Positions 4,026 to 64,000 of a stretch of 64,000 nucleotides of DNA are shown piece by piece. Both the position numbers and the translations under genes were made by a program. The DNA is from an uncultured Thermomicrobiales bacterium (GTDB lineage Bacteria > Chloroflexota > Chloroflexia > Thermomicrobiales > UBA6265). How positions within the stretch are numbered: the stretch's first letter is position 1; the number at the start of each line of letters is the position of its first letter. The stretch lies in assembly GCA_902806345.1 (NCBI GenBank), contig CADCWF010000148.1, forward strand, positions 6,724-70,723. The letters run 5' to 3'. The notes beneath the pieces were generated by a model. The model searched no databases, was not told the DNA's origin, and was given only the letters and a program-made list of their open reading frames with translations.

Positions 4026-5630
4026 CTACCGTCCTTCCGCCGTGACGGTCGCCGGGTCGGCGATCGGCCCGCCACCCGCGTGAGCAGCGATGCCGACGCG
4101 TTCGCCTTCACCGTGGGCCATCGCCGTCATCACCGCATCCTGGGAGATCTCGTCGCGGCCGAACTCGGCGACCGTCTTGCCGTCCCGGAGGACCACGACC
4201 CGGTCGGAGCCTTCGGTGATCTCCTCGATCTCGGAGGAGATCATCAGCACCCCCAGCCCGGCGTCGGCGAGTTCATCGATCAGCCCCTGAATCTCCGCCT
4301 TGGCCCCGACGTCGATGCCGCGGGTCGGCTCGTCGAGCAGCAGCAGTTTGGGGTTCAGGCAGAGCCAGCGGGCGAGCAGCACTTTCTGCTGGTTGCCGCC
4401 CGACAATTCGCGGATCGTCTGCTCCGGGCCGGCGGTCTTGATCCCGAGCCGCGAGATGAACCGGTCGACGATCTCGTCCTGCCGCTTGCGATCGACCACG
4501 CCGTTCTTCGCCAGCGTCGGCAGGGCGGCGAGCGTCAAGTTCTCGCGGACGGACATGTAGGGCACGATGCCGTCGGCCTTGCGGTCTTCGGCCAAGAAGC
4601 CGAATCCCTCCCGGATCGCGTCGCGCGGCGACCGCAACTTGGCCGGCTTGCCGTTGACCTCCATCTCGCCGCCCTCTGGGGCATCGGCGCCGAAGACGAT
4701 CCGCGCGACCTCGCTCCGCCCCGACCCGAGCAGCCCCGCCAGGCCGACGATCTCTCCCGGCCGCACGGCCAGGTCGGCGTCGTGGAGACGGGGCGCCAGC
4801 GCCGCGTCGTGCAGTTCGACCACCGGCAGCCCATCGGCCTGGGCCGTCCGTCGACCGAAGCCGGTGGCCCCGGAGCGGCGCACCTCGCCGACTTCCTTGC
4901 CGAGCATCAGGGCCACAAGCTCCAGCTTGCCGACCTCCCCCATCTCGCGGGCGGCGACCGTCTTGCCGTCGCGCATGATCGTGACCCGGTCGCAGACCGC
5001 GTAGAGCTCGTCGAGCCGGTGGGTGATGAAAACCACCGAGACGCCCCGCCCCTTCAGCTCCCGGATCACCCCGAAGAGCGTCTCCACCTCGCGGTCGTCG
5101 AGCGACGAGGTCGGCTCGTCCATGATGACCAGCTTGGTGTCGAACGAGACCGCCCGTGCGATCGCGACCATCTGCTGGAGCGCGATGTTGAGCTCGCCGA
5201 GCGGACGCCGGGGGTCGACCGAGACGCCCATCCGGCTGAGGATCTCCCACGCCTCGCGGTTCATCCGGCTCCAGTTGATGAGGCCGAACCGCCTCGGCTC
5301 CCGTCCCATGAAGACGTTCTCGGCGACGGAGCGGTAGGGGACGAGGTTGATCTCCTGAAAGATCGTGCTGACGCCGGCGAGCTGGGCCTCCTGGGTCGAG
5401 CCGAAGTCGACCGGCCGACCGTCGAACGTCACCGAGCCGCCGTCGCGGCGGTAGGCACCGTTCAGGATTTTCATGAGCGTGCTCTTACCGGCGCCGTTCT
5501 GGCCGACCACGGCGTGGACCTCGCCGCGGCCGACGCGGAGCGATGCCTCATCGAGCGCGAGCACGCCGGGGAAGGTTTTGACGACCCCATCCATCTCAAG
5601 GAGGGGAGGGTCGGCGTCAAGGTGGGTCAC
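4026..5630 (-). CDS. sugar ABC transporter ATP-binding protein (duplicated ATPase)
   Basis: Walker A GQNGAGKST, LSGGNQQK signature, and two Walker B sites (IMDEPT, LLLDEPT). Start set at GTG 5630, which has GGAGA 8 nt upstream; the ORF is open to 5708. Confidence 0.85.
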   Translation of the reverse strand: MTHLDADPPLLEMDGVVKTFPGVLALDEASLRVGRGEVHAVVGQNGAGKSTLMKILNGAYRRDGGSVTFDGRPVDFGSTQEAQLAGVSTIFQEINLVPYRSVAENVFMGREPRRFGLINWSRMNREAWEILSRMGVSVDPRRPLGELNIALQQMVAIARAVSFDTKLVIMDEPTSSLDDREVETLFGVIRELKGRGVSVVFITHRLDELYAVCDRVTIMRDGKTVAAREMGEVGKLELVALMLGKEVGEVRRSGATGFGRRTAQADGLPVVELHDAALAPRLHDADLAVRPGEIVGLAGLLGSGRSEVARIVFGADAPEGGEMEVNGKPAKLRSPRDAIREGFGFLAEDRKADGIVPYMSVRENLTLAALPTLAKNGVVDRKRQDEIVDRFISRLGIKTAGPEQTIRELSGGNQQKVLLARWLCLNPKLLLLDEPTRGIDVGAKAEIQGLIDELADAGLGVLMISSEIEEITEGSDRVVVLRDGKTVAEFGRDEISQDAVMTAMAHGEGERVGIAAHAGGGPIADPATVTAEGR

Positions 5631-11472: not shown

Positions 11473-12750
11473 GTGGCCGATATTCTTCCTGTCGTGACCC
11501 CGGCGATCGAGCGACTCTGGGCGGAGATTGACCGCCGCGGGGACGAGTTGGTCCAGACCGTCGCCGAACTGGTCCGCTTCCCGAGCGTGCTCGGCGACGA
11601 GGCGGCGGCCCAGGCGTACGTCGCGGACCACCTCCGCGACTCGGGTCTCGAGACGGAGGTCTGGGATCTCGACGAGTCGCTCAAGGAGCTGCCCAACGCG
11701 GGCGATAGCGGTGTCCTGTTCGCGGGCCGACCGAACGTCGCCGGCACGCTACGCGGCGCCGGGAGTGGGCAGTCGCTGATCCTCAACGGCCACATCGACG
11801 TCGTCAGCCCGGAGCCGGTCGCCGCCTGGACCGTTGACCCTTGGGGCGGGGAGATCGTCGGCGACCGGCTCTACGGCCGCGGTGCCTACGACATGAAGAG
11901 CGGCGACGCGTTGAACATGCTGCTGCCGCGGTTCCTGCGCGACGCCGGCATCGGGCTCCGCGGAGACGTGGTTGTCCAGAGCGTGATCGAGGAGGAGTGC
12001 ACCGGCAACGGCGCCCTGGACGCCAGTCTCCGCTACCCGGCTGACGCGGCGCTCGTGACCGAGCCGACGGGCGGCAACTTCACGCGTGCCCACGTCGGGG
12101 TGCTCTGGTTTCGGGTCGCCCTCGCCGGGGTCTCATGGCACGCGATGCAGGCCTGGAAGGGTGTCAACGCGATCTCGAAGGCGGTCCCTATCATCCAGGC
12201 GCTGGAAGCGCTCGACGCCCGGCTGAATGCGCAGCCGGTCCACCCGGCGTTCGCCGGCATCGAGCACCCGATTAACCTCAACATCGGCGTCATCCGCGGC
12301 GGCGACTGGCCGAGCACCGTTCCCGGCGCCTGCGAGCTCCACTGCCGGCTCAGCCTCTATCCCGGCCAAACGGTGGCCGAGACGAGGACCGAGATCGAGC
12401 GGTCGATCGCGGAGGCGGCCGCGGCCGATCCCTGGCTGCGCGACCACCCGCCGGTCGTCACCTACGACGGCTTCGGCAGCGCCGGCTCCGAGGTATCGAT
12501 GGACGAGCCGGCGGTAACGCTCCTCTCGGCTTGGCACCAGAGTGTCTTCGGCGCCCCGATGCGTCCGGTCTCCGGCACCGGCATCAACGACATGCGCTAC
12601 TTCAACTTCCGCGGCATCCCGTCTGGCTGCTACGGCGCCGGCGGCGCCAACGCCCACGCTGCCGACGAGTGGCTCGACATTCCTTCGATGGTCCCGGCCG
12701 CGAAGGTGCTCGGAGCGTTCATGCTCGACTGGTGCGGAGTGGGCGAATAG
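11473..12750 (+). CDS. M20 family metallopeptidase (ArgE/DapE/ACY1-type)
   Basis: 425-aa ORF. LILNGHIDVV, GRGAYDMKSG and EEECTGNG are metal-binding motifs. Confidence 0.85.
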   Translation: MADILPVVTPAIERLWAEIDRRGDELVQTVAELVRFPSVLGDEAAAQAYVADHLRDSGLETEVWDLDESLKELPNAGDSGVLFAGRPNVAGTLRGAGSGQSLILNGHIDVVSPEPVAAWTVDPWGGEIVGDRLYGRGAYDMKSGDALNMLLPRFLRDAGIGLRGDVVVQSVIEEECTGNGALDASLRYPADAALVTEPTGGNFTRAHVGVLWFRVALAGVSWHAMQAWKGVNAISKAVPIIQALEALDARLNAQPVHPAFAGIEHPINLNIGVIRGGDWPSTVPGACELHCRLSLYPGQTVAETRTEIERSIAEAAAADPWLRDHPPVVTYDGFGSAGSEVSMDEPAVTLLSAWHQSVFGAPMRPVSGTGINDMRYFNFRGIPSGCYGAGGANAHAADEWLDIPSMVPAAKVLGAFMLDWCGVGE

Positions 12751-12957
12751 GACAGCGGCGCCCCCCTCGTCGGCCGGACCGGACGCGGACGCCTCCTCGC
12801 GGGCTCCTGCACGAATGACGGACGAGAGCGATGGGGCGGGTGATTCTTCGCCGTCGCTACGGATGACGGAGGACGGGCGCGACATCCCCCCGCGGTTCCG
12901 GGCCGGTTGGCTTCCTAACTCCGCCACCGGCGACACGCCAAGGGGGGACCAGGGGGC

Positions 12958-14097
12958 TTACTCCCAGCCCACGATCAGGTCGTCGAGCGGGAGCCGGGGG
13001 CGCCGCACCGGGTCTTTGGCCGCAAAGCCGACAGCGATCAGGGCGTGCGGGTCGAGGGCCTCGGCGAGGCCGAGCGAGCGCCGCACGACGTCCGGGCAAA
13101 AGAGCGGCGCGCACATCCACCCGGCGTCGAGGCCGGAGGCGTAGAGGCTCAGCAGCAGATTCTGGACAGCTGCGCCCAGGCTCTGGATTGCCATCGTCCG
13201 CTCGGCCTCCTGCCGGGCCAGGTCGGGGTAGACATCCAGATCCTCCAGGTAGAGGCAAGGCACGATCAGCAACGGCGCCGTGGTCAAGCGCTCCCGGCTG
13301 CGCCCCAGGCGGTGGGCCACCGTCGCCGCGTCCTGCCCGTCGAGGTCGAGCTGCTCCCGCCAGGTGGCCGCCATCGCTTCGGCGAGGGAGGCACGGCGGT
13401 CGGCCGTTTCGACCACCGCAAAGCGCCACGGCTGGCGGCCGTGGGGCGACGGCGCCCACCCCGCCGCAGCGATCGCCGCCTCGACCAGCGGACGCGGCAC
13501 CGGGCGCGGGTCGAAGGCGCGGACCGAGCGACGGCCGGCGATCGTCGCCTCGAGCTCCTCCACCCCTGGCCGTGGCAACGGGTGCTCACCTCCGTCCGAG
13601 CGTGCGCCGGAGCCGGACCAGGAGGAGGCGCGGAGGTCGCCGATGGCGACGACCGGCCGCTCCTCGATCGGCATCGCCCGGTACTGGGCGTACTTTTCCC
13701 GCAGGGCGGCGACCGCGTCGGTGTGCCCGGACTCCCCCGGCTCGATCAGCCGCGCCGCTCCGCGGACCCGAACCCACGACAGCCCGGCCCACTCCTCGAC
13801 GTAGTCGTCGACGAGGAGGGTCACCGTCGGGTTGCGCTCGATGTTGCGGACTCGCGCCAGCTCCCGGCCGTCGACCCGCTTCGGCTTGTCGTCGAGGGCC
13901 GAGACGATAACCGGTTCGCCCGCGAGGTCGATCCGCGTGAAGCAGATCGGCACCACCGACGGCGCTCCCTGGCCGTCGACCGTGGCGAGGCGTCCGACAC
14001 GGTGGCCATCCAGGTAGGCCAACTCCGCCGCAGACGGTGACTGCCCGCCACCCTGCCCGGACGCTGTCGCCGTCGACGGCGCAATCTCGGCGACCAC
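12958..14097 (-). CDS. fusion protein: PPOX-class (F420-dependent-type) split-barrel domain + FbiB C-terminal-like nitroreductase domain
   Basis: N-terminal part: GRLATVDGQGAPSVVPICF...NIERNPTVTLLVD...LSWVRVRG. C-terminal part: RRSVRAF, PSPHGRQPWRF, YPD..R.EAERTMAIQSLGAAVQNLLL. The GTG start directly abuts the TAG stop of the upstream SBP gene (GGGGGAAGGTTAGGTG). Confidence 0.85.
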   Translation of the reverse strand: MVAEIAPSTATASGQGGGQSPSAAELAYLDGHRVGRLATVDGQGAPSVVPICFTRIDLAGEPVIVSALDDKPKRVDGRELARVRNIERNPTVTLLVDDYVEEWAGLSWVRVRGAARLIEPGESGHTDAVAALREKYAQYRAMPIEERPVVAIGDLRASSWSGSGARSDGGEHPLPRPGVEELEATIAGRRSVRAFDPRPVPRPLVEAAIAAAGWAPSPHGRQPWRFAVVETADRRASLAEAMAATWREQLDLDGQDAATVAHRLGRSRERLTTAPLLIVPCLYLEDLDVYPDLARQEAERTMAIQSLGAAVQNLLLSLYASGLDAGWMCAPLFCPDVVRRSLGLAEALDPHALIAVGFAAKDPVRRPRLPLDDLIVGWE

Positions 14098-15699
14098 CTA
14101 ACCTTCCCCCGCCACGGTCGGGATCAGGTAATCGTCGGCCCGCGGCGTCCAGGCCGGAACCTCCGAGCCGACCCCGTAGAGCCCCGTCAGGTTGTAGAGG
14201 TAGATCGCCGCAGGCTCGTCTCGGAGGCGCCGGCCTAGATCACGGTAGAGCTTCTCGCGGATGGACGGGTCTGGCTCGACCGCGGCGGCTTCGAGGGTCT
14301 TCTGGATGCCGACGTTGTCGTGACGAGAGAGGAACCCGGTGCTGGAGATGACCAGGCTCAGGAGGGTGTACGGGTCGAACAGCGGTCGCCACGTCGCGAA
14401 GCGGAGGGGGGCCGCGTCGAGGTCGGTCCAGGTCGCGTTGAAGGTGGCGGTCTCGACCGGCCGCACCTCGGCCCGGATGCCGACCGCCTCGAGCTGTCCG
14501 GCGATGGCGAGGACGATCTCCTCGCGCTCGGACGCGGCGTACTCGATCGCGGTCTCGAACCCCTTGCCGTACCCGGCCTCGGTCAACAGCGCCCGTGCCT
14601 GCTCCGGGTCGTAGGCGTAGGGCTTCAGCCCAGGATCCCAGCCGAGTCCGCCCTCGACGAAGAAGTTGGGCAGCCGGGCGCCGTTGCCGGCTAGAAGCGC
14701 CGCCACGATCGCGTCGACGTCGACCGCGAAGTTGAGCGCCTGCCGGACCCGGACGTCGTCGAACGGGGCCACGTCGGTCGGGACCCGGACCCAGGCGGCA
14801 CCGGAGAGCGGCTGGGCAACGAGGACCGCATCCTCCTCGACCGCGTCGATCTGATCGACCGGCACGCCGCGGATCAGGCCAGAGGTGCCGGAGAGCAGGT
14901 CGGAGACGCGGGTGGTCGCGTCGGGCACCGGCCGGATTCGGATCACGTCGGCGATGGCGTTGCCCTTCGGACTGTCCCCGAATACGTCCGGGTTGGCCTC
15001 CAGCCGGATCTCCCGTCCGCGGTCCCAGGCGACGAAACGGTACGGCCCCGTGCCGACCGGCTCCGCGGCGAAGTCGTTGGAGGGGTCGGCGGCGTAGTCC
15101 GGGGGCAGCATCGCCAGCCAGCCCGCCATCTGGGCCGGCAGCCAAGGCGCCGGCGCGGCCAGGCGGAACCGGACCAGCAGCGGCTCGACCTCTTCGACCT
15201 CCTCGATGACCGCGAAATTGGCCGCCACCTGCGACCCCGTCGCCGGGTCCTGGATGTGGGCGACGGAGAAGGCGACGGAGGCGGCGTCGAACGGCTCCCC
15301 GTTGTGGAAGACGACGCCCGGGCGGAGGCGCGCCTCCCAGGTGAGGGGGTCGGTCTGCTCCAGCGATTCGGCGAGCAGCGGCTGCAGCTCGCCGTCCGGC
15401 CCGTACTGGACAAGCGCGTCGTAGACGGAGTGGACGACCGACCACGAGTCGGCGTCGTAGACCACGGCCGGGTCGAGCGTCGCGGGCTCGGTCGCCAAGT
15501 CGATCGTCAACTCGGGGATCCGGTCGCCTGCCTGCCAGCGACCCGTTCGCCAACCCGGCGAGATCGGTTCGACAAGGCCGGCAGTGGCGAGCGCCGGGAA
15601 CGGGGCGGCACCGACGGAGCCCGCCGCCAACAAGACGCCGCCGGTCGCCTTCAACAGGTCTCGTCGAGCGAGCGAGATCGAAGTCCGAGTGCGAACCAT
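14098..15699 (-). CDS. ABC transporter substrate-binding protein, family 5 (peptide/nickel/opine type) with Tat signal
   Basis: Start ATG 15699 after GGAAGGAG. Signal MVRTRTSISLARRDLLKATGGVLLAAG. Body typical of DppA/OppA-like SBPs. Confidence 0.85.
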   Translation of the reverse strand: MVRTRTSISLARRDLLKATGGVLLAAGSVGAAPFPALATAGLVEPISPGWRTGRWQAGDRIPELTIDLATEPATLDPAVVYDADSWSVVHSVYDALVQYGPDGELQPLLAESLEQTDPLTWEARLRPGVVFHNGEPFDAASVAFSVAHIQDPATGSQVAANFAVIEEVEEVEPLLVRFRLAAPAPWLPAQMAGWLAMLPPDYAADPSNDFAAEPVGTGPYRFVAWDRGREIRLEANPDVFGDSPKGNAIADVIRIRPVPDATTRVSDLLSGTSGLIRGVPVDQIDAVEEDAVLVAQPLSGAAWVRVPTDVAPFDDVRVRQALNFAVDVDAIVAALLAGNGARLPNFFVEGGLGWDPGLKPYAYDPEQARALLTEAGYGKGFETAIEYAASEREEIVLAIAGQLEAVGIRAEVRPVETATFNATWTDLDAAPLRFATWRPLFDPYTLLSLVISSTGFLSRHDNVGIQKTLEAAAVEPDPSIREKLYRDLGRRLRDEPAAIYLYNLTGLYGVGSEVPAWTPRADDYLIPTVAGEG

Positions 15700-15755
15700 C
15701 GTTGCTCCTTCCATGCGTGGATCCGGAGGTTTGTCGTCCGTCGATCCGATCATCG

Positions 15756-17102
15756 TCAGCGCTCCGCCGCCGCGTCCCCGAGGAGATTCAGACCGAGGAC
15801 CGTCAGCGCCACGGCGGCGCCCGGCACGGCCGACACCCACGGCGCCTTGAGCAGCGCCTCTTGCCCTTCCGCCGCCATCCCGCCCCACGTCACCGCCGTC
15901 CCCCCGAGGCCGAGGCCGAGGTAGCTCAGCGACGCTTCGTAGAGGATCATCGCCGAGACCTGCTGCGTCGCCAGGATGGCGACGGTGCCGAGCAGATGGG
16001 GGGCGACGTGGCGCAGCACGAGGCGAGGGGCTCCCACGCCCAGCGCGACCGCTGCCTCAACCCATGCCGCCCGAGCGATCGCCCGCGTCTGGAGCCGCAC
16101 CACCCTCGCATAGCCGACCCACCCGGTCAGGACCAGCGTCAGCAGCACCGGCACCAAGCCGAAGCCGAGCGCGGCGGTCGCGGCGATCGCGACGACGACG
16201 AACGGCAGCGCCGCCTGGACATCGGTCAGCCAGCCGAGCGCACGGTCGGCGGGACCACCGGACCACCCGGCGACGGCGCCGAGGGTCACGCCGATCGCCC
16301 CCGCCCCGGCCGTGGCAGCTAGCCCGACCAGGAGCGAGACCCGCGCCCCGGCGACCAGCCGGGCGAGCAGATCGCGGCCGAGAGCGTCGGTACCGAGCGG
16401 GTGGGCAACGGTGCCGCCGAACCCGAGCGGCGGGGCCAAGCGGCCGAGCAGGTCTTGCCGGTTCGGGTCGGTCCCGACCAGCCCTGGACCGAAAATCGCG
16501 GCGACCACGAGGACCAGGGCGATGGTCCCTCCGACCACCACGGCAACGCTGGGCCGCGCCCGATGGCGGGAATTCGCCCGGGGACGAATCGCTCGCGTTG
16601 CGCCTCGGATCGATCCGTCCTCGACCCGCCCCTCTTCCTCCAGACCCGATCGCCTGCGGCCGGCCTGCTGGCCAGGACCGGCAGCCGCGCTTTCGAACGC
16701 GACCGCTGCTGGCCGGGATGAAGCCGCGATTGTCCCCGACTCCGAGGGGATCAAATGGCTCGAAGCTGATGGCCGGGGTTGGGGCGACGATGCTTGTCCG
16801 CTGCTCAGGCAGGACTTCGCCCGAGGCTGATCGGAGGCCTGGAGGGCCTTCGTCACCCCCGCATAGAACGCCAGCCCCGGTCCGTCGCCGAGCACCGAAG
16901 TTCGCCCCAACTGGGGTAACTGCTCCCGACCATCGTCCGGTACGGGCCAGGTGGCCGCCTGCCGAACAGCCTGGGAACGGGTTCCGAGCGAAGCGCGGTG
17001 ACCGGCGTCCTTCGCCGCGGCCACCGTGACCGCTCGGCTCGGCAACTGGACGGAGGCACCGTTGACCGACCGTCCCGGAGACCCCGAACATTTGACGATC
17101 AC
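15756..17102 (-). CDS. ABC transporter permease, DppC/OppC-like (start uncertain)
   Basis: The conserved permease core starts near 16600 (HPLGTDALGRDLLARL; EAA-loop region EAAVALGVGAPR). No ATG/GTG lies just upstream of the core. The only well-placed start is GTG 17102, which overlaps the dppB-like stop (GTGA) after GGAGGG. That start adds about 150 low-complexity residues. Confidence 0.7.
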   Translation of the reverse strand: MIVKCSGSPGRSVNGASVQLPSRAVTVAAAKDAGHRASLGTRSQAVRQAATWPVPDDGREQLPQLGRTSVLGDGPGLAFYAGVTKALQASDQPRAKSCLSSGQASSPQPRPSASSHLIPSESGTIAASSRPAAVAFESAAAGPGQQAGRRRSGLEEEGRVEDGSIRGATRAIRPRANSRHRARPSVAVVVGGTIALVLVVAAIFGPGLVGTDPNRQDLLGRLAPPLGFGGTVAHPLGTDALGRDLLARLVAGARVSLLVGLAATAGAGAIGVTLGAVAGWSGGPADRALGWLTDVQAALPFVVVAIAATAALGFGLVPVLLTLVLTGWVGYARVVRLQTRAIARAAWVEAAVALGVGAPRLVLRHVAPHLLGTVAILATQQVSAMILYEASLSYLGLGLGGTAVTWGGMAAEGQEALLKAPWVSAVPGAAVALTVLGLNLLGDAAAER

Positions 17103-18049
17103 GATGGCCCTCCGATCCCCGGGTCGAGCCGGAGCCGGGGGTCGAGCGAGCGGGCCGCCAGATCGACCAGCAGGTTGATCCCCACCAGGAGCGTCGCGAC
17201 GACGGCGACGAACGCCTGGACCACGGGTAAGTCGCGATCGGCGACCGCGTTCAGCGCCAGCAGACCCAACCCGGGGTAGGCGAAGACGGCCTCGACGACC
17301 GCCGCCCCGCCGAGCAGGAACCCCGCCTGGAACCCGGCGAACGCCAGCGTCGGCTGCAGCGCGTTCCCGAGCACGTGGCGGCGGAGCAGGGCAAACTCGG
17401 CAAGCCCCTTGCCGCGCGCGGTGCGGACATAGTCGGCTGCCAGCACCTGCCGGGTCGAGGCGCGGACCAGGCGGGCCACCGTCGCCAGTGGGAATGCCGC
17501 AAGGGTGATGGCCGGGAGCATCACGGAGGCGGGACCGTCGAAACCGGAGGCGGGCAGCCAGTGGAGCCGCACCGCGAAGAGCAGGATCAACATCGTGCCG
17601 AGCCAGAAGGCCGGCAGAGCCTGTCCGCCGAGCGCGACGAGGCGCGTCCCGTGGTCCAGCCAGCCGCCCACGTTCGCCCCGGCGCCAAGGCCGAGCAGGA
17701 TGCCACCCCCGACTGAGAGGAGACTCGCCGAGCCGACCAGCGCCAGCGTCGCCGGCAGTCGCTCCAGCGTGGCCGCTAGCGCCGGCCGCCCCTGCCGCCA
17801 CGACTCCCCGAACTCGCCGCGGGCGGCGTCGGCCAGGAAGGCGGCGTACTGCTCGGGCAGCGGCCGGTCGAGCCCGTACGCCTGCCGCAGCGCCGCCACA
17901 TCGGCCGGAGCGCTGCCGGGTGGGACGAGACCGGAAAGCGGGTCGCCGACGACGCGGAGGAGGACGAACACGACCGTGGCCACGCCGAGCAGGGTCGACG
18001 CCGCGAGGGCGCCCCGCCCGATCAGCCAGTGGACCATGCCCGCGCCCAT
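17099..18049 (-). CDS. ABC transporter permease, DppB/OppB-like
   Basis: N-terminus MGAGMVHWLIGRGALAASTLLGVATVVFVLLRVVGDP is typical of DppB. The ORF is open to GTG 18118; alternative starts are 18037 and 18049. Confidence 0.85.
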   Translation of the reverse strand: MGAGMVHWLIGRGALAASTLLGVATVVFVLLRVVGDPLSGLVPPGSAPADVAALRQAYGLDRPLPEQYAAFLADAARGEFGESWRQGRPALAATLERLPATLALVGSASLLSVGGGILLGLGAGANVGGWLDHGTRLVALGGQALPAFWLGTMLILLFAVRLHWLPASGFDGPASVMLPAITLAAFPLATVARLVRASTRQVLAADYVRTARGKGLAEFALLRRHVLGNALQPTLAFAGFQAGFLLGGAAVVEAVFAYPGLGLLALNAVADRDLPVVQAFVAVVATLLVGINLLVDLAARSLDPRLRLDPGIGGPS

Positions 18050-18147
18050 ACCACGCCCCCGTCTACGCCGAGTCCGGTGCGCAACCGTTCGACGCCCGGT
18101 GCATCGACGCCCGGTCACCGCAACCGTCGGCTACCTCCCCGCGGCAC

Positions 18148-18179
18148 AAAAAAAACCCGGGGCACTCGGCCCTCGGGTC
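18148..18179 (-). terminator. intrinsic terminator (riboswitch expression platform)
   Basis: Minus strand ACCCGAGGGC-CGAGU-GCCCCGGGU forms 9 bp with 1 bulge and is followed by U8. It lies between the aptamer and the first permease gene. Confidence 0.7.
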
Positions 18180-18230
18180 TGGCGGCGGTTTCGGGAAGCA
18201 CGGCTACGCCGACGGCTACCGCCGCGGCGC

Positions 18231-18371
18231 GCCTTCTCCCATCCGGACTCTACCGTCGGCTCCGGAATCCCACCGGATCGTGCTCGCGCGACGTCGCGCG
18301 CTCGCTCGCGGGCTCTACCGCCGGTCAGGACTTGGCCGACTGGAACGCCGACCTCACCTCACCCCGAAGGC
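18231..18371 (-). promoter_or_regulatory. FMN riboswitch (RFN element) aptamer
   Basis: Minus strand GCCUUCGGGGUGAGGUGA[hairpin insert]AAGUCCUGACCGGCGGUAGAGCCCGCGAGC...GAUCCGGUGGGAUUCCGGAGCCGACGGUAGAGUCCGGAUGGGAGAAGGC. This matches the conserved RFN blocks as recalled from the B. subtilis ribD leader. P1 is GCCUUC/GAAGGC. Confidence 0.85.
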
Positions 18372-18382
18372 TCTGCTTACCA

Positions 18383-18411
18383 AGCATAAGCGCGGAGAGC
18401 GAGACCGTCAA
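18383..18411 (-). promoter_or_regulatory. sigma-70-type promoter for the riboswitch leader
   Basis: Minus strand TTGACG (18411-18406), 17-nt spacer, TATGCT (18388-18383), about 12 nt upstream of the aptamer P1. Confidence 0.55.
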
Positions 18412-18769
18412 ACGGCGCGTTCCGCCGATTCTAAGGGAGCAATTCCCAGCCGCGTTATGGATGCGCCGCGGGTGGTGATTGGGGTGAGGCGCAGCCAGGC
18501 ATGTTCGCCGACACGGACGCGGTCGTCGTTCCAATTGCCGTACTCCCGAAGGGACTTGCCGCGCCCACCGCACCTCGGGGTTGGAACGCACCACGGGCGT
18601 CCCCGGCCCGTCCCGCTGTCGATTGTCATCCCGGGGAGATGACCACGGCTGCGCCCCCTGCCCGTGCTCCAAGGAGACGGGCAAGGGACGAGATCTCGAG
18701 CGTGGCGGCGGCGTCTGCGATGTCCGTAACGGCTCCCCCGCGCCCGAGCGTTCGGAATCGACGAACGCC

Positions 18770-19282
18770 TCAGCACCCGTACTGGCAGACCCCTTGGGCG
18801 CCGGGAAGCCCTGGGTAGGAGGAGCAGCAGACGAGACCGAAGTCGCACGGCTGAAAGGTGCCGGAGGCGCAGGCGCAGCCGAGGCCGGTGCATCTGACCG
18901 TGTCGCAGGTGCCGTACTGGCCGCAGTAGCCGCTGCAGCAGCCAGGGCAGGTGTCGCCCCAGTTGCACGACCCGGAGCAGCCGCCGCCGTTCCCGGTGCA
19001 TGCCCCGCCGCAGTCGGCCGGGCTGGAGCAGACGCCTCCTCCCCCCGGAGTGCCGGGGCTGCTCGGGCAACAGACCAGGCCATTGCCGCAGGCATGGCGA
19101 GTCCCGGTGGCACAGCCGCAGCCGATGTAGTTGCAGTGGTCCGCCCGCGTCCCGTCGGGTGCCAACACGGCCCGTCCGAGCAGGGCAGCGACGGCGGCCA
19201 CGGCAACCCGGCGCAGAGCGCCGCGCCGGGAGGACGAGGACGCGAGACCGCGGGCGAGCGCGTCGAACCGTCGCGGTTCCAT
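18770..19282 (-). CDS. secreted cysteine-rich protein (24 Cys, duplicated Cys module + knottin-like core), Tat-type signal
   Basis: ATG 19282 lies 9 nt after GGAGGAGG. Signal MEPRRFDALARGLASSSSRRGALRRVAVAAVAALLGRAVLA. The mature part carries two copies of C-x4-C-x-C-x7-C-x5-CC-x12-C. Confidence 0.75.
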   Translation of the reverse strand: MEPRRFDALARGLASSSSRRGALRRVAVAAVAALLGRAVLAPDGTRADHCNYIGCGCATGTRHACGNGLVCCPSSPGTPGGGGVCSSPADCGGACTGNGGGCSGSCNWGDTCPGCCSGYCGQYGTCDTVRCTGLGCACASGTFQPCDFGLVCCSSYPGLPGAQGVCQYGC

Positions 19283-19454
19283 CGAGGAAGCCTCCTCCGG
19301 TATCAGTTGTCCCCCGAGGGGGTGAGGCTTGTAGGCTACGTGGGCACGAGCCGGACCGCAACCGCCATATCTGCCGCCGATCGCGGGCGATTCCAGCGAG
19401 TCTCGTCTGTCCGGATCGGCCCATCGGCGGCACAGGGGGACGCTCTCCGGTGCG

Positions 19455-20858
19455 TCACGATGGGGCACCTTCGGCGGCGGGACTCGTCTGCCACGATCCT
19501 GGGTCTGGGATGGGTACGGCCTCGCGCAGCGACCGCAGCGGCGAGAGCAGCAGCCAAGCGAACGCGACGAGCATTCCGAGCTCCCCTACCACCAGCGTTC
19601 CCGCCAGGCCGATAGCTCCGCCGAGCACGCCGCCGAGGAGCGATCCGATCGGACGCAGCCCCCAGACGAGGAAGCGGACCGTGCCGTTGACTCGGCCGGC
19701 GAGTCGATCCGGTACGATCGCCTGACGGAGGCTGATGGCGTTGACGTCGTAGGCGACGATGGCCATCCACTGGAGGAACTCCGAGGCGACGACGAGCGGC
19801 AACGCGCACCGCGGCGCGAGCACCGCCAGCGGCACCAGCAGCCCGGTTGCCCCGAACAGGAACATGGCGCCGACGATGGTCGGGCCCTGCCCGAAGCGAG
19901 CCCGCGCCGGTCCGGCGACGAGGCTCCCGGCCAGGGCGCCGACGCCTCCCGTCGCCAGGACCAGCCCGACCTCACCCGCGTCCAGACCGAGGTCCCGCGT
20001 CATGAACAGGACGTAGACGGCGAGGAAGGCAAAGCCCGCCACCTGGACCGTCGCCGAGGCGAAAACCAGCGCCCGAAGCACCTCGCTCCGCCGGACCACC
20101 GAGAGCCCCTCCCCGATCTCCGTCCAAACACCGGACCGCTCGGCGGCGGGAGTTCGCGCCGGTTCGGGCGACTTAATCCGCCAGAGCAGGGCGCCGGAAA
20201 CCACGAACGACGCTGCGTCGACCACCAGCGCAAACGGCCCGCCGAGGACCCGAACCAGCACCCCGCCGAGCCCCGGCCCGACAATCTGTGCGGCCGACGC
20301 GGTCGCCTCGAGCCGGCTGTTGCCGTCGACGAGCTGCCGGCGCTCGACCAGCGCCGGCAGGTAGGAGAGGTAGGCGACATCGAAGAAGACCGTCAGCGTG
20401 CCGGCCAGGAGGGCGACCGCGTAGAGCACCTCGATCGTCAAGGCGTTTAGCAGCCACGCCGCCGGGATGACGGCGAAAATGGCGGCCCGTCCGACGTCGG
20501 CGGCGATCATCACCGGCCGCCGTGGCCAGCGGTCGACCAGGACCCCGGCGAAGAGCCCGACGAGAAGGAACGGCAGCCAGCCGAGCGCGGCCAGCAGCCC
20601 GGTCTCGAACGGCGACGCCGCGAGCGTCGTCGCCGCGATCAGCGGCAGCGCCAATGCAGAGACGTGGGTGCCGAACTGCGACACCGCCTGGGCGCCCCAG
20701 AACCGGAGGAAATCTGGGTGCCGGAGCAGCGGCCGCGACGACTCGGGCGGAACGCCGCCGGATGACGGGAGCGGAACGCTCTGCCCGAGAGGAGACGGGC
20801 CAGCGTCGGAGGGCAGCCCGGGGACGACCCCGGGCTCGTCGTGGCTTGTCGAAGACAT
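19455..20858 (-). CDS. MFS transporter (EntS/MFS_3-like)
   Basis: About 467-aa polytopic protein. RHPDFLRFWGAQAVSQFGT is the typical N-terminus of this MFS subfamily. Start placed at ATG 20858; the ORF is open to 21083. Confidence 0.8.
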   Translation of the reverse strand: MSSTSHDEPGVVPGLPSDAGPSPLGQSVPLPSSGGVPPESSRPLLRHPDFLRFWGAQAVSQFGTHVSALALPLIAATTLAASPFETGLLAALGWLPFLLVGLFAGVLVDRWPRRPVMIAADVGRAAIFAVIPAAWLLNALTIEVLYAVALLAGTLTVFFDVAYLSYLPALVERRQLVDGNSRLEATASAAQIVGPGLGGVLVRVLGGPFALVVDAASFVVSGALLWRIKSPEPARTPAAERSGVWTEIGEGLSVVRRSEVLRALVFASATVQVAGFAFLAVYVLFMTRDLGLDAGEVGLVLATGGVGALAGSLVAGPARARFGQGPTIVGAMFLFGATGLLVPLAVLAPRCALPLVVASEFLQWMAIVAYDVNAISLRQAIVPDRLAGRVNGTVRFLVWGLRPIGSLLGGVLGGAIGLAGTLVVGELGMLVAFAWLLLSPLRSLREAVPIPDPGSWQTSPAAEGAPS

Positions 20859-21119
20859 GGAACGGAGACTCCCGGCATGCGGCCGGGGGAAGCGCGGCGC
20901 TCTCCCCCGCTGTCCAATGCGCCCGATCGTCAGGACAGCGGGGAATCCATCATGATGGTGGGGATCGGTCGGCCGTCGCGCTGCACCGGGAGTCCTCTTG
21001 CGCGTCATGAACATCGCCCGCCGGTACCGTAGCGGACGGTAGCTCGCCGCGCAAACACCCCCTCCCGTGTCTCCGGGGCACATATGTTCTGTACGTTCGT
21101 CCAGGTGTAAACTCCGGGC

Positions 21120-63093: not shown

Positions 63094-64000
63094 TTGGAGA
63101 TCGCACGGGACGAGGGGGAATTGGCAATCGAGGCCAGCGGGTTGTCCCGAAGGTTCGGCGATTTCGTCGCCGTCGACGGGATCGATCTGGCTGTCCGCAG
63201 GGGCGAGATCTACGGCTTCCTGGGGCCGAACGGGGCGGGCAAGTCGACCACCACGCGGATGCTCTGCACCCTAACCGCGCCCAGCGGCGGCAGCGCGACG
63301 GTGGCCGGGTTCGATGTCGCGCGGCAGCCGAGCGCGGTCCGCTTGCGGATCGGGGCCGCGCTCCAGGCAACAGCGCTCGACCTCCAGCAGACGGGGACCG
63401 AACTGCTGCGCCAGCAAGGACGCTACTACGGACTCCCTAAAGCCGCGATCGACCGCCGGATCCGCGATCTGCGTAGCCTGATCGACATCGGGGAGGCCCT
63501 CGACCAGCGGATCAAAACCTACTCCGGCGGCATGAAACGGCGTGTCGACCTCGCCGCCGCCCTTATCCACAACCCGGAGGTGCTCTTCCTTGACGAACCG
63601 ACGACCGGACTCGACCCGGCCTCCCGGGCCAAGGTCTGGGAGGAAGTGCGACGGCTCAACACCGATCTCGGGATGACCATCTTCCTGACGACGCAGTACT
63701 TGGAAGAAGCCGACGCCCTCGCCGACCGGGTCGGCATCATCGACCGCGGCACGATCGTCGCCGAGGGCACCCCGGCGGACCTCAAGCGGTCGATCGGGGC
63801 CGACGTGGTGGCGGTCCGCGTCGACGACGTCGAACGCGCCGGACCGGTCATCCGAGCGGTGCCGGGGGTCGACGCGGTCGAGACCCGCGGCGACGAGATC
63901 TTGGCGGCCTCCGCCGACGGCCCGGCCACCGTTTCGCCGATCGCGGTCGCCCTCGCCGACGCCGATGTTCGCGTGCGCGCCCTGACGCTGCGCGAGCCGA
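63094..64000 (+). CDS. ABC transporter ATP-binding protein (DrrA/ABC-2 type), 3' partial at window end
   Basis: Not in the ORF track because it is open at the window end. GPNGAGKSTTTRML, YSGGMKRRV, LFLDEPTTGLD. TTG start at 63094 (alternative 63121). Confidence 0.85.
   Translation, partial: MEIARDEGELAIEASGLSRRFGDFVAVDGIDLAVRRGEIYGFLGPNGAGKSTTTRMLCTLTAPSGGSATVAGFDVARQPSAVRLRIGAALQATALDLQQTGTELLRQQGRYYGLPKAAIDRRIRDLRSLIDIGEALDQRIKTYSGGMKRRVDLAAALIHNPEVLFLDEPTTGLDPASRAKVWEEVRRLNTDLGMTIFLTTQYLEEADALADRVGIIDRGTIVAEGTPADLKRSIGADVVAVRVDDVERAGPVIRAVPGVDAVETRGDEILAASADGPATVSPIAVALADADVRVRALTLREP

Follow-up and report, generated by a model that had tools for sequence, protein, structure and literature searches.

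The window (the whole 64 kb stretch of DNA analysed here) belongs to a metagenome-assembled genome of an uncultured soil member of the Thermomicrobiales (Chloroflexota), and a B. subtilis/actinomycete frame for this DNA is therefore wrong; the first-pass annotation did not name the phylum. On the minus strand lies a four-gene operon that follows an FMN element and encodes two permeases, a binding protein (SBP) and a PPOX–nitroreductase fusion. Riboswitch, promoter, terminator and genes are all found where that annotation had placed them:

18383..18411 (-): promoter-like site TTGACG-17 nt-TATGCT, 7 nt before the Rfam match
18227..18375 (-): FMN riboswitch aptamer (RF00050), Rfam match to the full model, 1-138
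18334..18353 (-): 20-nt P2 hairpin insertion, GGUCGGC-GUUCCA-GUCGGCC, extending P2
18148..18179 (-): intrinsic terminator, GC-rich hairpin plus U8, predicted by folding
18169..18177 (-): terminator stem 5' half, CCCGAGGGC, proposed antiterminator strand
17099..18037 (-): permease B, DppB/NikB-like (BPD_transp_1_N and BPD_transp_1)
16755..17098 (-): inter-permease spacer, no coding signal
15756..16754 (-): permease C, DppC/NikC-like (OppC_N and BPD_transp_1)
14098..15699 (-): family-5 SBP, 533 aa, twin-arginine signal ARRDLLK (SBP_bac_5)
12958..14097 (-): fusion protein, 379 aa (PNPOx_N and Nitroreductase)
~14019-13618 (-): residues 27-160 of the fusion, PPOX-class F420-dependent domain (TIGR03668)
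~13542-12970 (-): residues 186-376 of the fusion, FbiB-C/FbiE-type nitroreductase domain (by similarity to FbiB-C)

A convergent M20 peptidase gene adjoins the cassette in the window and at the related loci L018, L104 and L105.

The operon appears to be separately promoted. TTGACG-17-TATGCT, the promoter of the first-pass annotation (18411-18383), is the sole sigma-70-like site within 12000-19500, where shuffled sequence gives 0.2. Its layout (TTGACN, 17-18 nt, TATNNT, 7-9 nt, then the aptamer) is kept in most related loci, with -35 and -10 boxes at equal distance in L020, L006, L031, L008, L004, L002, L038, L042, L039, L104 and L105.

The FMN riboswitch and its expression platform

A search of the window against Rfam matched RF00050 at 18375-18227 (-) with 84.6 bits (E 8.5e-18; gathering score 66.2) and no other family. 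P1 is formed by GCCUUC (18371-18366) and GAAGGC (18236-18231). The P2 insertion region spans 24 nt, compared with 4 in the Rfam consensus, and among 16 distinct homologues compensatory changes at 5/7 pairs support the 20-nt hairpin that had been noted within it. Over the whole aptamer 97.9% of cells are paired and both-sided changes occur at 9 pairs, a result that none of 500 shuffles matched. The nine ligand-contact nucleotides listed in PMC6298564 (G10, G11, G12, G32, A48, G62, G84, A85 and A99) are all canonical and invariant across 16 distinct sequences. Score, P1, covariation and FMN-contacting nucleotides agree, and on this sequence evidence we conclude, with the first-pass annotation, that this is a genuine FMN riboswitch of canonical form.

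Its associated genes are atypical of the class, as were those of the C. difficile variants (PMC6298564), and the element is located within an F420 cluster; both observations would fit a specificity variant of the FMN class that responds to a deazaflavin (FO or an F420 species) or to a product of flavin breakdown, not to FMN. We consider this reading very improbable. The known variants deviate exactly at the ribityl- and phosphate-binding guanosines, all of which are canonical here; the RF00050 score is well over the gathering threshold; and the platform here is of the OFF type, while characterised variants of subtype 2 function as ON switches.

The terminator hairpin with its U8 tract has a folding energy of -16.6 to -17.8 kcal/mol. 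A simple terminator scan missed the hairpin at 18179-18148, presumably owing to a bulge in the stem; a like hairpin with a U-rich tail stands at the equivalent position in related leaders. CCCGAGGGC is complementary to GCCUUCGGG, the P1 5' strand together with J1/2 (18371-18363). When the 3' half of the terminator was blocked in folding, the CCCGAGGGC segment paired with aptamer positions 8-16 in 10/15 leaders (the window and nine others), and in L020 and L104 the antiterminator pairing is present already in the unconstrained minimum-free-energy structure. A terminator 5' half that can pair with the P1 5' strand implies an OFF switch. The conserved hairpin and U-tract, along with the alternative pairing predicted by folding, thus favor the transcriptional OFF platform proposed in the first-pass annotation, through which FMN would turn the operon off.

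Transport proteins and the fusion enzyme

Permease B, starting at ATG 18037 or ATG 18049, finds its best match in the Opp2B nickel permease (260 bits, below the cut-off of 350) and is 63% identical to its L020 counterpart from residue 1. The start of permease C is uncertain (TTG 16754 or GTG 16541); it scores 204 bits against Opp2C (cut-off 300) and is 61% identical to permC of L020. The spacer between the two genes, which does not appear in the first-pass annotation, measures 340-480 nt, according to which start is taken for permease C. It shows no period-3 GC3 signal, is apparently non-coding, holds no notable repeats and has no similarity to related loci, in which permB and permC abut.

The SBP matches SBP_bac_5 with 249 bits in a profile search; its sequence is that of P0121 (533 aa), and its relatives at E<=1e-30 number 1336. 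GGAAGGAG precedes its start (ATG 15699) and the SRRxxL twin-arginine motif is at least 90% conserved among 42 orthologues. The operon holds no ABC ATPase gene, and only two ATPase-like genes exist in the window: 4110-5603 (-), of ribose type, and ~63094-63789 (+). Domains and gene list thus agree with the earlier description of DppB-like and DppC-like permeases and a Tat-signal family-5 SBP lacking ATPases; likewise, the domains of the four proteins match none of the named riboflavin transporter families, and the operon stands outside them.

The fusion gene is translationally coupled to the SBP gene, as previously proposed: the SBP stop (TAG 14100-14098) abuts the fusion start (GTG 14097), with GGGGGAAGG just 5'. 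The protein reaches 138.8 bits on TIGR03668 (cut-off 119.15) and 168.1 bits on TIGR03553, below the cut-off of 249.55. Its best PDB match is 4xom, the C-terminal domain of M. tuberculosis FbiB (E 5.6e-32). Between the C-half and the stand-alone nitroreductase (NTR) encoded in the cofD-cofC operon of Thermomicrobium roseum (T. roseum) identity reaches 61%, and between the CofD proteins of the same two organisms 64%; this NTR itself scores 163 bits on TIGR03553, comparable to the fusion. The dehydro-F420 reductase of T. roseum is a stand-alone FbiB-C homologue, FbiE (reviewed in PMC8498797 and PMC8764529; enzyme of Braga et al. 2020, as cited in PMC8498797), and the enzyme assayed may be the NTR at TRD_RS12805. 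The flavoenzyme fusion of the first-pass annotation therefore keeps its PPOX and nitroreductase domains but is no longer anonymous: by similarity its C-half is an FbiE-type dehydro-F420-0 reductase domain, with the corresponding activity predicted. Many loci in other lineages carry the fusion gene without transporter or riboswitch, which argues against the further suggestion that the fusion is the transporter's dedicated processing partner.

Conceivably the fusion works on the transporter's cargo, reducing or repairing an imported flavin analogue for instance, while a separate stand-alone FbiE serves F420 synthesis. The shortfall on TIGR03553, a weak similarity to BluB (66 bits), the tight coupling to the SBP gene, which suggests a functional pair, and the oddity of FMN repressing an essential pathway step would all fit. 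We think this improbable, given that the C-half resembles the T. roseum NTR on a par with the CofD orthologues, that the window and the flanks examined contain no second NTR paralogue, and that at many loci the same fusion, minus the transporter, stands beside F420-type LLM genes.

Recurrence of the cassette and the F420 gene neighbourhood

In all 21 related loci with the leader on the contig the FMN element lies 5' of permB-permC-SBP-fusion; an orthologous operon devoid of the element, the observation that would have told against the first-pass annotation, was found in none of them (0/21). In the SBP-seeded set the fusion gene follows the SBP gene at 11/11 loci.

This recurrence bears on the view that the operon encodes an ordinary peptide, nickel or opine importer unrelated to flavins, the riboswitch serving the fusion and the transporter genes being passengers. 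By Pfam and NCBIfam all three transporter components are of the peptide/nickel family, the source annotations read 'peptide/nickel transport system', and the M20 peptidase gene lies beside the cassette at the loci named above. Structural neighbours bind peptide, glutathione or nickel; the SBP is at most 27% identical to any binding protein of solved structure, and the ligands of its nearest relatives among these are glutathione, peptides, Ni-His, opines or sialic acid, never a flavin. Against this, the SBP reaches no NikA, DppA, OppA, GsiB or other equivalog cut-off (best 137 vs 594 bits). The riboswitch directly precedes the transporter genes in every case (21/21) and never accompanies the lone fusion gene of other lineages, so the element travels with the transporter, not the enzyme, and FMN riboswitches 5' of transporters consistently mark flavin carriers. 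An importer unconnected with flavins is thus unlikely.

The cassette lies directly 3' of cofD-cofC-cofE in 12/14 related loci; in the window itself and in L039 it does not adjoin cof genes. CofD, CofC and CofE score above their NCBIfam equivalog cut-offs, and an F420-type LLM gene belongs to the same upstream group. In T. roseum, where the gene order is cofD-cofC-DMT-NTR, the equivalent slot is filled by a DMT transporter gene that overlaps cofC by 4 nt and has no riboswitch; L072 and L081, like T. roseum, have a DMT/EamA transporter gene beside the gene for the NTR or the fusion. Together with the FbiE-type C-half of the fusion, the cof genes strengthen the idea, already put forward in the first-pass annotation, of a flavin or deazaflavin-precursor module. 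A single insertion in an ancestor, not repeated selection, may of course account for the linkage to cof genes in the cassette clade. None of the four operon proteins was found in the published lists of FMN-riboswitch-associated genes that were consulted, and we found no description in the literature of an FMN riboswitch associated with a PepT-type importer and an F420 enzyme.

Alternatively, the importer could be specific for FO that F420 producers nearby release or that the cell itself loses through leakage. The FMN riboswitch would then report indirectly on a shortage of 5-amino-6-ribitylaminouracil, the precursor that flavins and FO share. With flavin in short supply, FO would be imported, not made, and passed through CofD, FbiE and CofE. 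FO is made from a riboflavin precursor (PMC8498797), the cassette usually ends the cofD-cofC-cofE cluster, and the genes for its transporter invariably share a transcript with the FbiE-type fusion. A non-orthologous DMT occupies the T. roseum slot, DMT and fusion genes are paired in L072 and L081, and no cofG/cofH/fbiC-like genes were seen in the flanks of the loci examined. However, the full FMN-type phosphate-binding pocket of the aptamer means that the signal is FMN, not a deazaflavin; FO reportedly passes membranes by diffusion (PMC8498797), which leaves the need for an importer of its own less than obvious; and T. roseum makes F420 in pure culture while still possessing a transporter in the slot, so that presence of the transporter does not imply FO auxotrophy. 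Dedicated FO salvage is possible, if somewhat doubtful, and would sharpen, not contradict, the explanation that we prefer. To our knowledge all characterised importers under FMN-riboswitch control carry riboflavin, which also counts against FO specificity.

A proposed role and its place among known systems

Our preferred explanation, to which we assign a probability of roughly 0.55, is an FMN-repressed importer of ribityl-flavins (riboflavin and/or FO) controlled by a canonical riboswitch and accessory to the Thermomicrobiales F420 cluster. Transcription would start ~7 nt past TATGCT. At high FMN the aptamer, to judge from folding and conservation, would close P1 and lock G10-G12, allowing hairpin and U8 to form and transcription to terminate; when FMN is low, the 5' strand of P1 would be left free to pair with the 5' half of the terminator and permit read-through. 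The resulting mRNA would yield the Tat-exported SBP and the two PepT-type permeases, which, given the absence of ATPase genes from the operon, probably borrow Dpp/Opp-type ATPases encoded elsewhere. Riboswitch logic and gene neighbourhood point to a compound of ribityl-flavin type as the cargo. The fusion, through its FbiE-type FMN-dependent reductase domain and its PPOX F420-binding domain, would complete F420-0 synthesis, the PPOX domain plausibly passing electrons from F420H2 to FMN. In sum, a demand for flavin, sensed through low FMN, would turn on uptake together with the FMN-requiring step of F420 maturation.

Flavins of the riboflavin/FMN type seem to us the likeliest substrates, followed closely by FO, the 5-deaza analogue that forms the head group of F420. 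A single transporter might serve for the two; in yeast, FO and riboflavin are thought likely to use common transport routes (PMC8859854). Several points speak against the preferred explanation: repression by FMN of an FMN-dependent biosynthetic enzyme is counter-intuitive, the curated TIGR03553 cut-off is not reached and the solved SBP relatives bind no flavin. If correct, it points to an undescribed uptake system for flavins or deazaflavins and to a regulatory link between both cofactors.

The closest precedent is RibXY of Chloroflexi, a predicted ATPase-less riboflavin ABC module under FMN-riboswitch control (Sun et al. 2013, PMC3766115). Phylum, riboswitch and an SBP-dependent ABC module without ATPase gene are shared, and for RibXY, too, function was assigned from riboswitch logic alone; the "new type" of the first-pass annotation therefore has to be qualified, an ATPase-less, riboswitch-controlled design being on record already. 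RibY is an NMT1/THI5-type SBP and RibX a single TauC-type permease, whereas the present operon has a family 5 (cluster C) SBP with a Tat signal and two PepT-type permeases; RibXY also has no enzyme gene and no F420 gene link. RfuABCD of spirochaetes likewise takes up flavin by a binding-protein-dependent ABC route, and a Spirochaeta homologue is preceded by an FMN riboswitch. It differs in that RfuA is a BMP/PnrA-family lipoprotein, RfuC and RfuD are BPD_transp_2-type permeases, the RfuB ATPase gene lies inside the operon, and an F420 context is absent. With the PepT-family systems Nik, Dpp, Opp and Gsi the operon shares a family-5 SBP and two permeases with BPD_transp_1_N and OppC_N segments, but it lacks DppD/DppF-type ATPases, its proteins fall well under every substrate-specific NCBIfam cut-off, and control is by an FMN riboswitch, not by NikR or peptide-related regulation.

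The B. subtilis ribD riboswitch has the same aptamer architecture, binding-pocket nucleotides and intrinsic-terminator OFF platform; here, however, the antiterminator uses the P1 5' strand and not the 3' side, P2 carries the extra 20-nt hairpin, and the genes controlled are neither rib genes nor known riboflavin transporters. The cofD-cofC-DMT-NTR cluster of T. roseum differs in having a DMT/EamA transporter in place of an ABC system, an NTR without a PPOX domain and no FMN riboswitch, yet it comes from an organism of the same order, the Thermomicrobiales, and shows a reductase 61% identical to the fusion C-half and a transporter gene immediately before the reductase gene in an F420 gene cluster.

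The leader and its FMN riboswitch

The first-pass annotation described an aptamer, a promoter, a terminator and four genes on the minus strand between 18411 and 12958, and all are present. The genes encode a DppB-like permease (permB), a DppC-like permease (permC), a family-5 substrate-binding protein (SBP) and a fusion of PPOX and nitroreductase (NTR) domains; together with the leader they are referred to as the cassette. The features discussed in the window are as follows.

19455-21083, minus strand: MFS gene
18412-19450: interval of about 1 kb separating the MFS gene from the riboswitch promoter
18411-18383, minus strand: promoter-like TTGACG-17-TATGCT
18375-18227, minus strand: match to RF00050, the FMN riboswitch model
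18371-18366 and 18236-18231: P1, in which GCCUUC pairs with GAAGGC
18353-18334: extra 20-nt hairpin extending P2
18179-18148: terminator hairpin followed by U8
18177-18169: 5' half of the terminator, CCCGAGGGC
16755-17098: permB–permC spacer (16542-17098 if permC starts at GTG 16541)
4110-5603, minus strand: ABC ATPase-like gene
about 63094-63789, plus strand: ABC ATPase-like gene

The leader contains the sole Rfam match within the 64-kb window, a hit to the full-length RF00050 model that scores 84.6 bits (E 8.5e-18) against a gathering score of 66.2, and the earlier call of an FMN riboswitch is thereby borne out. Elements in twelve related loci score between 80.8 and 91.6 bits (Rfam). In the aptamer alignment 97.9% of cells are paired, compared to 24–52% when the alignment is slid out of register as a control, and nine pairs have changed on both sides, against a shuffle mean of 3.0; none of 500 shuffles reached nine. 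Five of the nine belong to the P2 extension hairpin: the core helices are mostly invariant and variation is concentrated in the P2 extension, P3 and P4. The covariation supports the six-helix junction of the FMN class.

The nucleotides that contact the ligand are G10, G11, G12, G32, A48, G62, G84, A85 and A99 in F. nucleatum numbering, with A48, A85 and A99 contacting the isoalloxazine ring of FMN, and G10, G11, G32, G62 and G84 the ribityl-phosphate (PMC6298564). In the specificity variants described by Atilho et al. the guanosines that contact the ribityl-phosphate are replaced (PMC6298564). All nine contact nucleotides, G12 included, are canonical in the window and invariant across the homologue alignment. 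The numbering was placed on the window by way of what we take to be the 3F2Q sequence, and the right base stands at every numbered position. Because the contact positions are canonical in the window as in all homologues, the effector of the riboswitch is most probably FMN itself. An aptamer of altered specificity was rejected on the same grounds, the guanosines and adenosines of the pocket all being canonical.

No other site like the promoter occurs in 7.5 kb (shuffled sequence gives 0.2), and the promoter is kept in relatives at a fixed 7–9 nt before the aptamer, which argues that the cassette is its own transcription unit. In several related loci tandem repeats of 8 nt, perfect or nearly so, take the place of the -35 region. 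These comprise (CTTGCCGT)x4.9 and (AGACGGCG)x3.8 in locus L019 (5939-5968 and 6029-6067) and arrays of CTCGACTT/CGACTGAC in L103 (7747-7794); others, in L018, L035 and L036, lie just upstream of the -10 box. The repeats may serve as sites for protein binding or as promoter spacers prone to slippage.

The terminator hairpin (-16.6 to -17.8 kcal/mol) is found again in other leaders, where sequence changes preserve the stem. With the 3' half made unavailable in the folding computation, the 5' half pairs with aptamer positions 8–16, that is, with the 5' strand of P1 and the G10–G12 run. Of 15 leaders, 10 allow this alternative pairing, and for two leaders it is the minimum even without constraint; by computation, terminator and antiterminator are mutually exclusive. 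Since folding allows the 5' half of the terminator and positions 8–16 to pair, the platform appears to have the transcriptional OFF architecture first proposed for it: FMN would lock P1, the terminator would form and transcription would stop. The opposite arrangement, an ON-switch, is difficult to reconcile with a terminator that is self-contained, lies approximately 50 nt after P1 and has a 5' half competing for the P1 5' strand, and was rejected.

The transport proteins and the fused enzyme

The transport genes have the make-up of the PepT family, a family-5 SBP with two permeases of the DppB/DppC BPD_transp_1 type. PermB has the domains BPD_transp_1_N and BPD_transp_1, and permC has OppC_N and BPD_transp_1; the SBP (533 aa) matches SBP_bac_5 at 249 bits and bears a twin-arginine signal, ARRDLLK. 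None of the transport proteins reaches a substrate-specific NCBIfam cut-off (NikA, DppA, OppA, GsiB, CntA and others): the SBP scores 137 bits against 594 for GsiB, 132 against 393 for NikA and 78 against 1005 for DppA, and the permeases 260 against 350 for Opp2B and 204 against 300 for Opp2C. AlphaFold (AF2) models the SBP with confidence (pLDDT 85.4), and in Foldseek and sequence searches the protein resembles only generic cluster-C SBPs; its identity to SBPs of solved structure does not exceed 27%. Ligands of these relatives include glutathione, peptides, Ni-His, opines and sialic acid; given relatives so generic and ligands so diverse, reading the ligand off the model was abandoned.

The first-pass annotation placed the system outside the known riboflavin transporter families, and for the families compared by domain make-up this view stands: only SBP_bac_5 and PepT-type BPD_transp_1 domains were found, unlike what is seen in RibU/ECF, RibM-PnuX, RibN/ImpX, RfnT, RibXY and RfuABCD. 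The transporter families published in association with FMN riboswitches are COG3601, COG0697, COG3201 and TauC, none of them PepT-type, and the published association lists (RibU, DMT-type, PnuX, TauC/RibXY, Rfu homologues and a few others) include no PepT-type system.

As originally noted, no ABC ATPase is encoded within the operon. Searches with tblastn detected no DppD/DppF-type ATPase gene there, nor in the cassette or flanks of any related locus, and the only two ABC ATPase-like genes of the window are unrelated to the cassette; judging by gene content, ATPases would have to come in trans. The minus-strand gene of the two encodes the fused double ATPase of a ribose-type system, is 69% identical to the gene in L105 and is syntenic with the downstream neighborhood of the cassette; the other sits at the window edge.

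Some peculiarities of individual loci deserve mention. The 340–480 nt between permB and permC show no period-3 GC3 signal, no Rfam match, no notable repeats and no homology to any related locus; in those loci little or nothing separates the two permease genes. In some loci (L020 12251-13972, L105 12712-14424 and L106 4814-6526, all minus strand) the fusion gene is followed closely by another SBP_bac_5 gene, an orphan in convergent orientation; in L020/L021 it shares just 28% identity with the cassette SBP. The cassette of L047 has two tandem SBP genes.

The fusion protein (379 aa, PNPOx_N and Nitroreductase) begins at a GTG that adjoins the TAG stop of the SBP gene, with GGGGGAAGG just upstream. 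Residues 27–160 pass TIGR03668, the Rv0121 family of PPOX-class F420-dependent proteins, at 138.8 bits (cut-off 119.15), and fusions without a transporter score 166–169. The nitroreductase domain matches PF00881 at 106.6 bits. For residues 186–376 the closest PDB entry is the C-terminal domain of M. tuberculosis FbiB (4xom, E 5.6e-32), followed by the next-best nitroreductase at 7.6e-17. This C-terminal half scores 168.1 bits against the curated cut-off of 249.55 for TIGR03553 (FbiB C-terminal); the NTR of the Thermomicrobium roseum cofD–cofC operon fails likewise at 163.4 bits, and the cut-off therefore appears tuned to actinobacterial FbiB. According to reviews, T. roseum reduces dehydro-F420 with FbiE, a stand-alone homologue of the FbiB C-terminal domain (PMC8498797, PMC8764529). 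Given this, and the 61% identity between the T. roseum NTR and the C-terminal half of the fusion, the latter is very probably an FbiE orthologue.

Fusion genes no more than 56% identical to that of the window exist with neither transporter, cof genes nor riboswitch (L054 8709-10798, L078, L086, L089 and L075), and constitute a second conserved context. They usually overlap the end of the luciferase-like (LLM) gene that precedes them, and in many a two-domain rhodanese gene lies downstream. Since these transporter-less fusions lack a riboswitch, the riboswitch travels with the transporter genes and not with the enzyme. In L072 and L081 the fusion is followed by a DMT/EamA gene with 51% identity to the T. 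roseum one. In L095 the fusion is neighbored by a Vut_1 gene, considered as a third transporter family but discounted, since it passes the equivalog for a queuosine-precursor transporter; the adjacency is probably coincidental. An NTR gene on a Paraburkholderia plasmid has neither cof genes nor a transporter in its context.

Distribution of the cassette and the F420 gene neighborhood

Related loci were gathered in three ways: by searches of species-representative genomes with the SBP as seed, by searches of metagenomes with the fusion as seed, and by exact look-up of long contigs. The metagenome scan returned 569 confirmed relatives, of which 80 were kept; the databases hold 3220 relatives of the fusion protein and 1336 of the SBP (E<=1e-30). 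Those that are named and placeable are Thermomicrobiales or Chloroflexota MAGs throughout, which led us to reject an actinobacterial origin and to leave the Gram-positive context suggested by the original comparison with B. subtilis ribD.

A covariance model built from eight related loci detected the FMN element in nine more. The leader region is on the contig in 21 loci (approximately 18 distinct sequences), and in every one the FMN element lies directly upstream of permB–permC–SBP–fusion. A search for orthologous operons without the element thus found none among these 21, and wherever RF00050 precedes the PepT-family genes it co-occurs with the fusion (21/21). The remaining cassette loci end before the leader and so provide no counter-example. 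The fusion gene directly follows the SBP gene in 11 of 11 SBP-seeded loci.

Where enough upstream DNA is available, the cassette stands immediately after a conserved block of F420 genes in 12 of 14 loci. The block consists of a PPOX-class gene (TIGR03618), cofD, cofC and cofE, each above its equivalog cut-off, and a gene for an LLM protein of the F420 glucose-6-phosphate dehydrogenase family (TIGR03557). The two exceptions are L039 and the window itself, whose 64 kb contain no cofC, cofD or cofE; as to FO synthase, the sole ORF with a CxxxCxxC motif overlaps a region without convincing coding signal. The stretch from the riboswitch promoter to the MFS gene has no Pfam match and, in any long ORF, no convincing coding GC3 pattern, and because the cofD–cofC–cofE–LLM block fills this position in most relatives, it may be a rearrangement scar. 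Downstream, synteny is kept (an M20 peptidase and a ribose-type ABC system).

The LLM gene of L020 (4653-5642, 329 aa), orthologues of which lie directly upstream of the riboswitch, passes TIGR03557 at 313 bits. Its top match is TIGR03885, the FMN-dependent 'flavin_revert' LLM family, at 362 bits, short of the cut-off of 398.7. As TIGR03557 is passed but TIGR03885 scores higher, the preference for F420 or FMN is ambiguous.

Substrate and relation to known systems

Bacterial riboflavin transporters have mainly been discovered by following FMN riboswitches, and to our knowledge an importer preceded by a canonical FMN riboswitch has proved a riboflavin carrier in every characterized case. Here the transporter invariably shares its transcript with an enzyme of F420 maturation and is usually inside an F420 cluster; in T. 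roseum a non-orthologous transporter occupies the slot. Because the riboswitch marks riboflavin carriers and the transporter is tied to F420 genes, we read the operon as a putative FMN-repressed module for uptake of a ribityl-flavin, coupled to an FMN-dependent step of F420 synthesis. For a riboflavin/FMN-type flavin as predicted substrate we estimate a probability of about 0.4.

FO, the deazaflavin head group of F420, is a slightly less probable candidate. It is a close structural analogue of riboflavin, is built from a riboflavin precursor and is the only freely exchanged intermediate of the F420 pathway (PMC8498797); in yeast the two are thought likely to share carriers (PMC8859854). FO is also said to cross membranes unaided (PMC8498797), and the linkage to cof genes may reflect one ancestral insertion. 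Some other substrate is given the same weight as FO, and flavin and FO may both be substrates of a single carrier. More speculatively, this could be the first dedicated FO (or dual riboflavin/FO) importer, with the FMN riboswitch shifting a flavin-scarce cell from making FO to scavenging it, and with the PPOX–FbiE fusion using F420H2 for FMN-dependent reduction of dehydro-F420-0; we regard this proposal as tentative and rather unlikely. That FMN should repress an FMN-dependent biosynthetic enzyme is odd, and basal read-through may suffice.

Under the preferred reading, uptake of a ribityl-flavin, a conserved canonical FMN riboswitch before a PepT-type ABC module nominates a further, structurally unrelated family for flavin uptake, one abundant in soil Thermomicrobiales (more than 1300 SBP relatives, and more than 560 fusion relatives in one metagenome scan). 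The position behind cofD–cofC–cofE and the coupling to an FbiE-type enzyme make two ideas testable: active bacterial import of FO, and coordination of F420 synthesis with flavin status. Were the transporter to import FO, the operon would be the first example of regulation linking the cell's flavin economy to that of F420, and FO would be an exchanged public good in soil communities. The analysis also identifies a widespread PPOX–FbiE fusion with an N-terminal domain of the Rv0121 family.

We found no description in the literature of an FO transporter, of an FMN riboswitch located in a cluster of F420 genes or of an FMN-controlled PepT-type system. The components are all of known kinds; it is their combination and the regulatory link that are new. 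The closest parallel on the F420 side is the megaplasmid of T. roseum (NC_011961.1 9333-12546), which carries a tight operon of cofD, cofC, a DMT transporter and a nitroreductase, with cofC and the DMT gene overlapping by 4 nt. Its CofD and the CofD encoded next to the cassette are 64% identical, but its NTR lacks the PPOX domain and the locus lacks an FMN riboswitch. This transporter, inside the F420 operon of a cultured producer, is seemingly not discussed in the F420 reviews consulted. On the flavin side the parallel is RibXY of Chloroflexi, a published FMN-controlled ABC module likewise without an ATPase (PMC3766115); the present operon would be the second case, after RibXY, of an ATPase-less vitamin ABC module in Chloroflexota.
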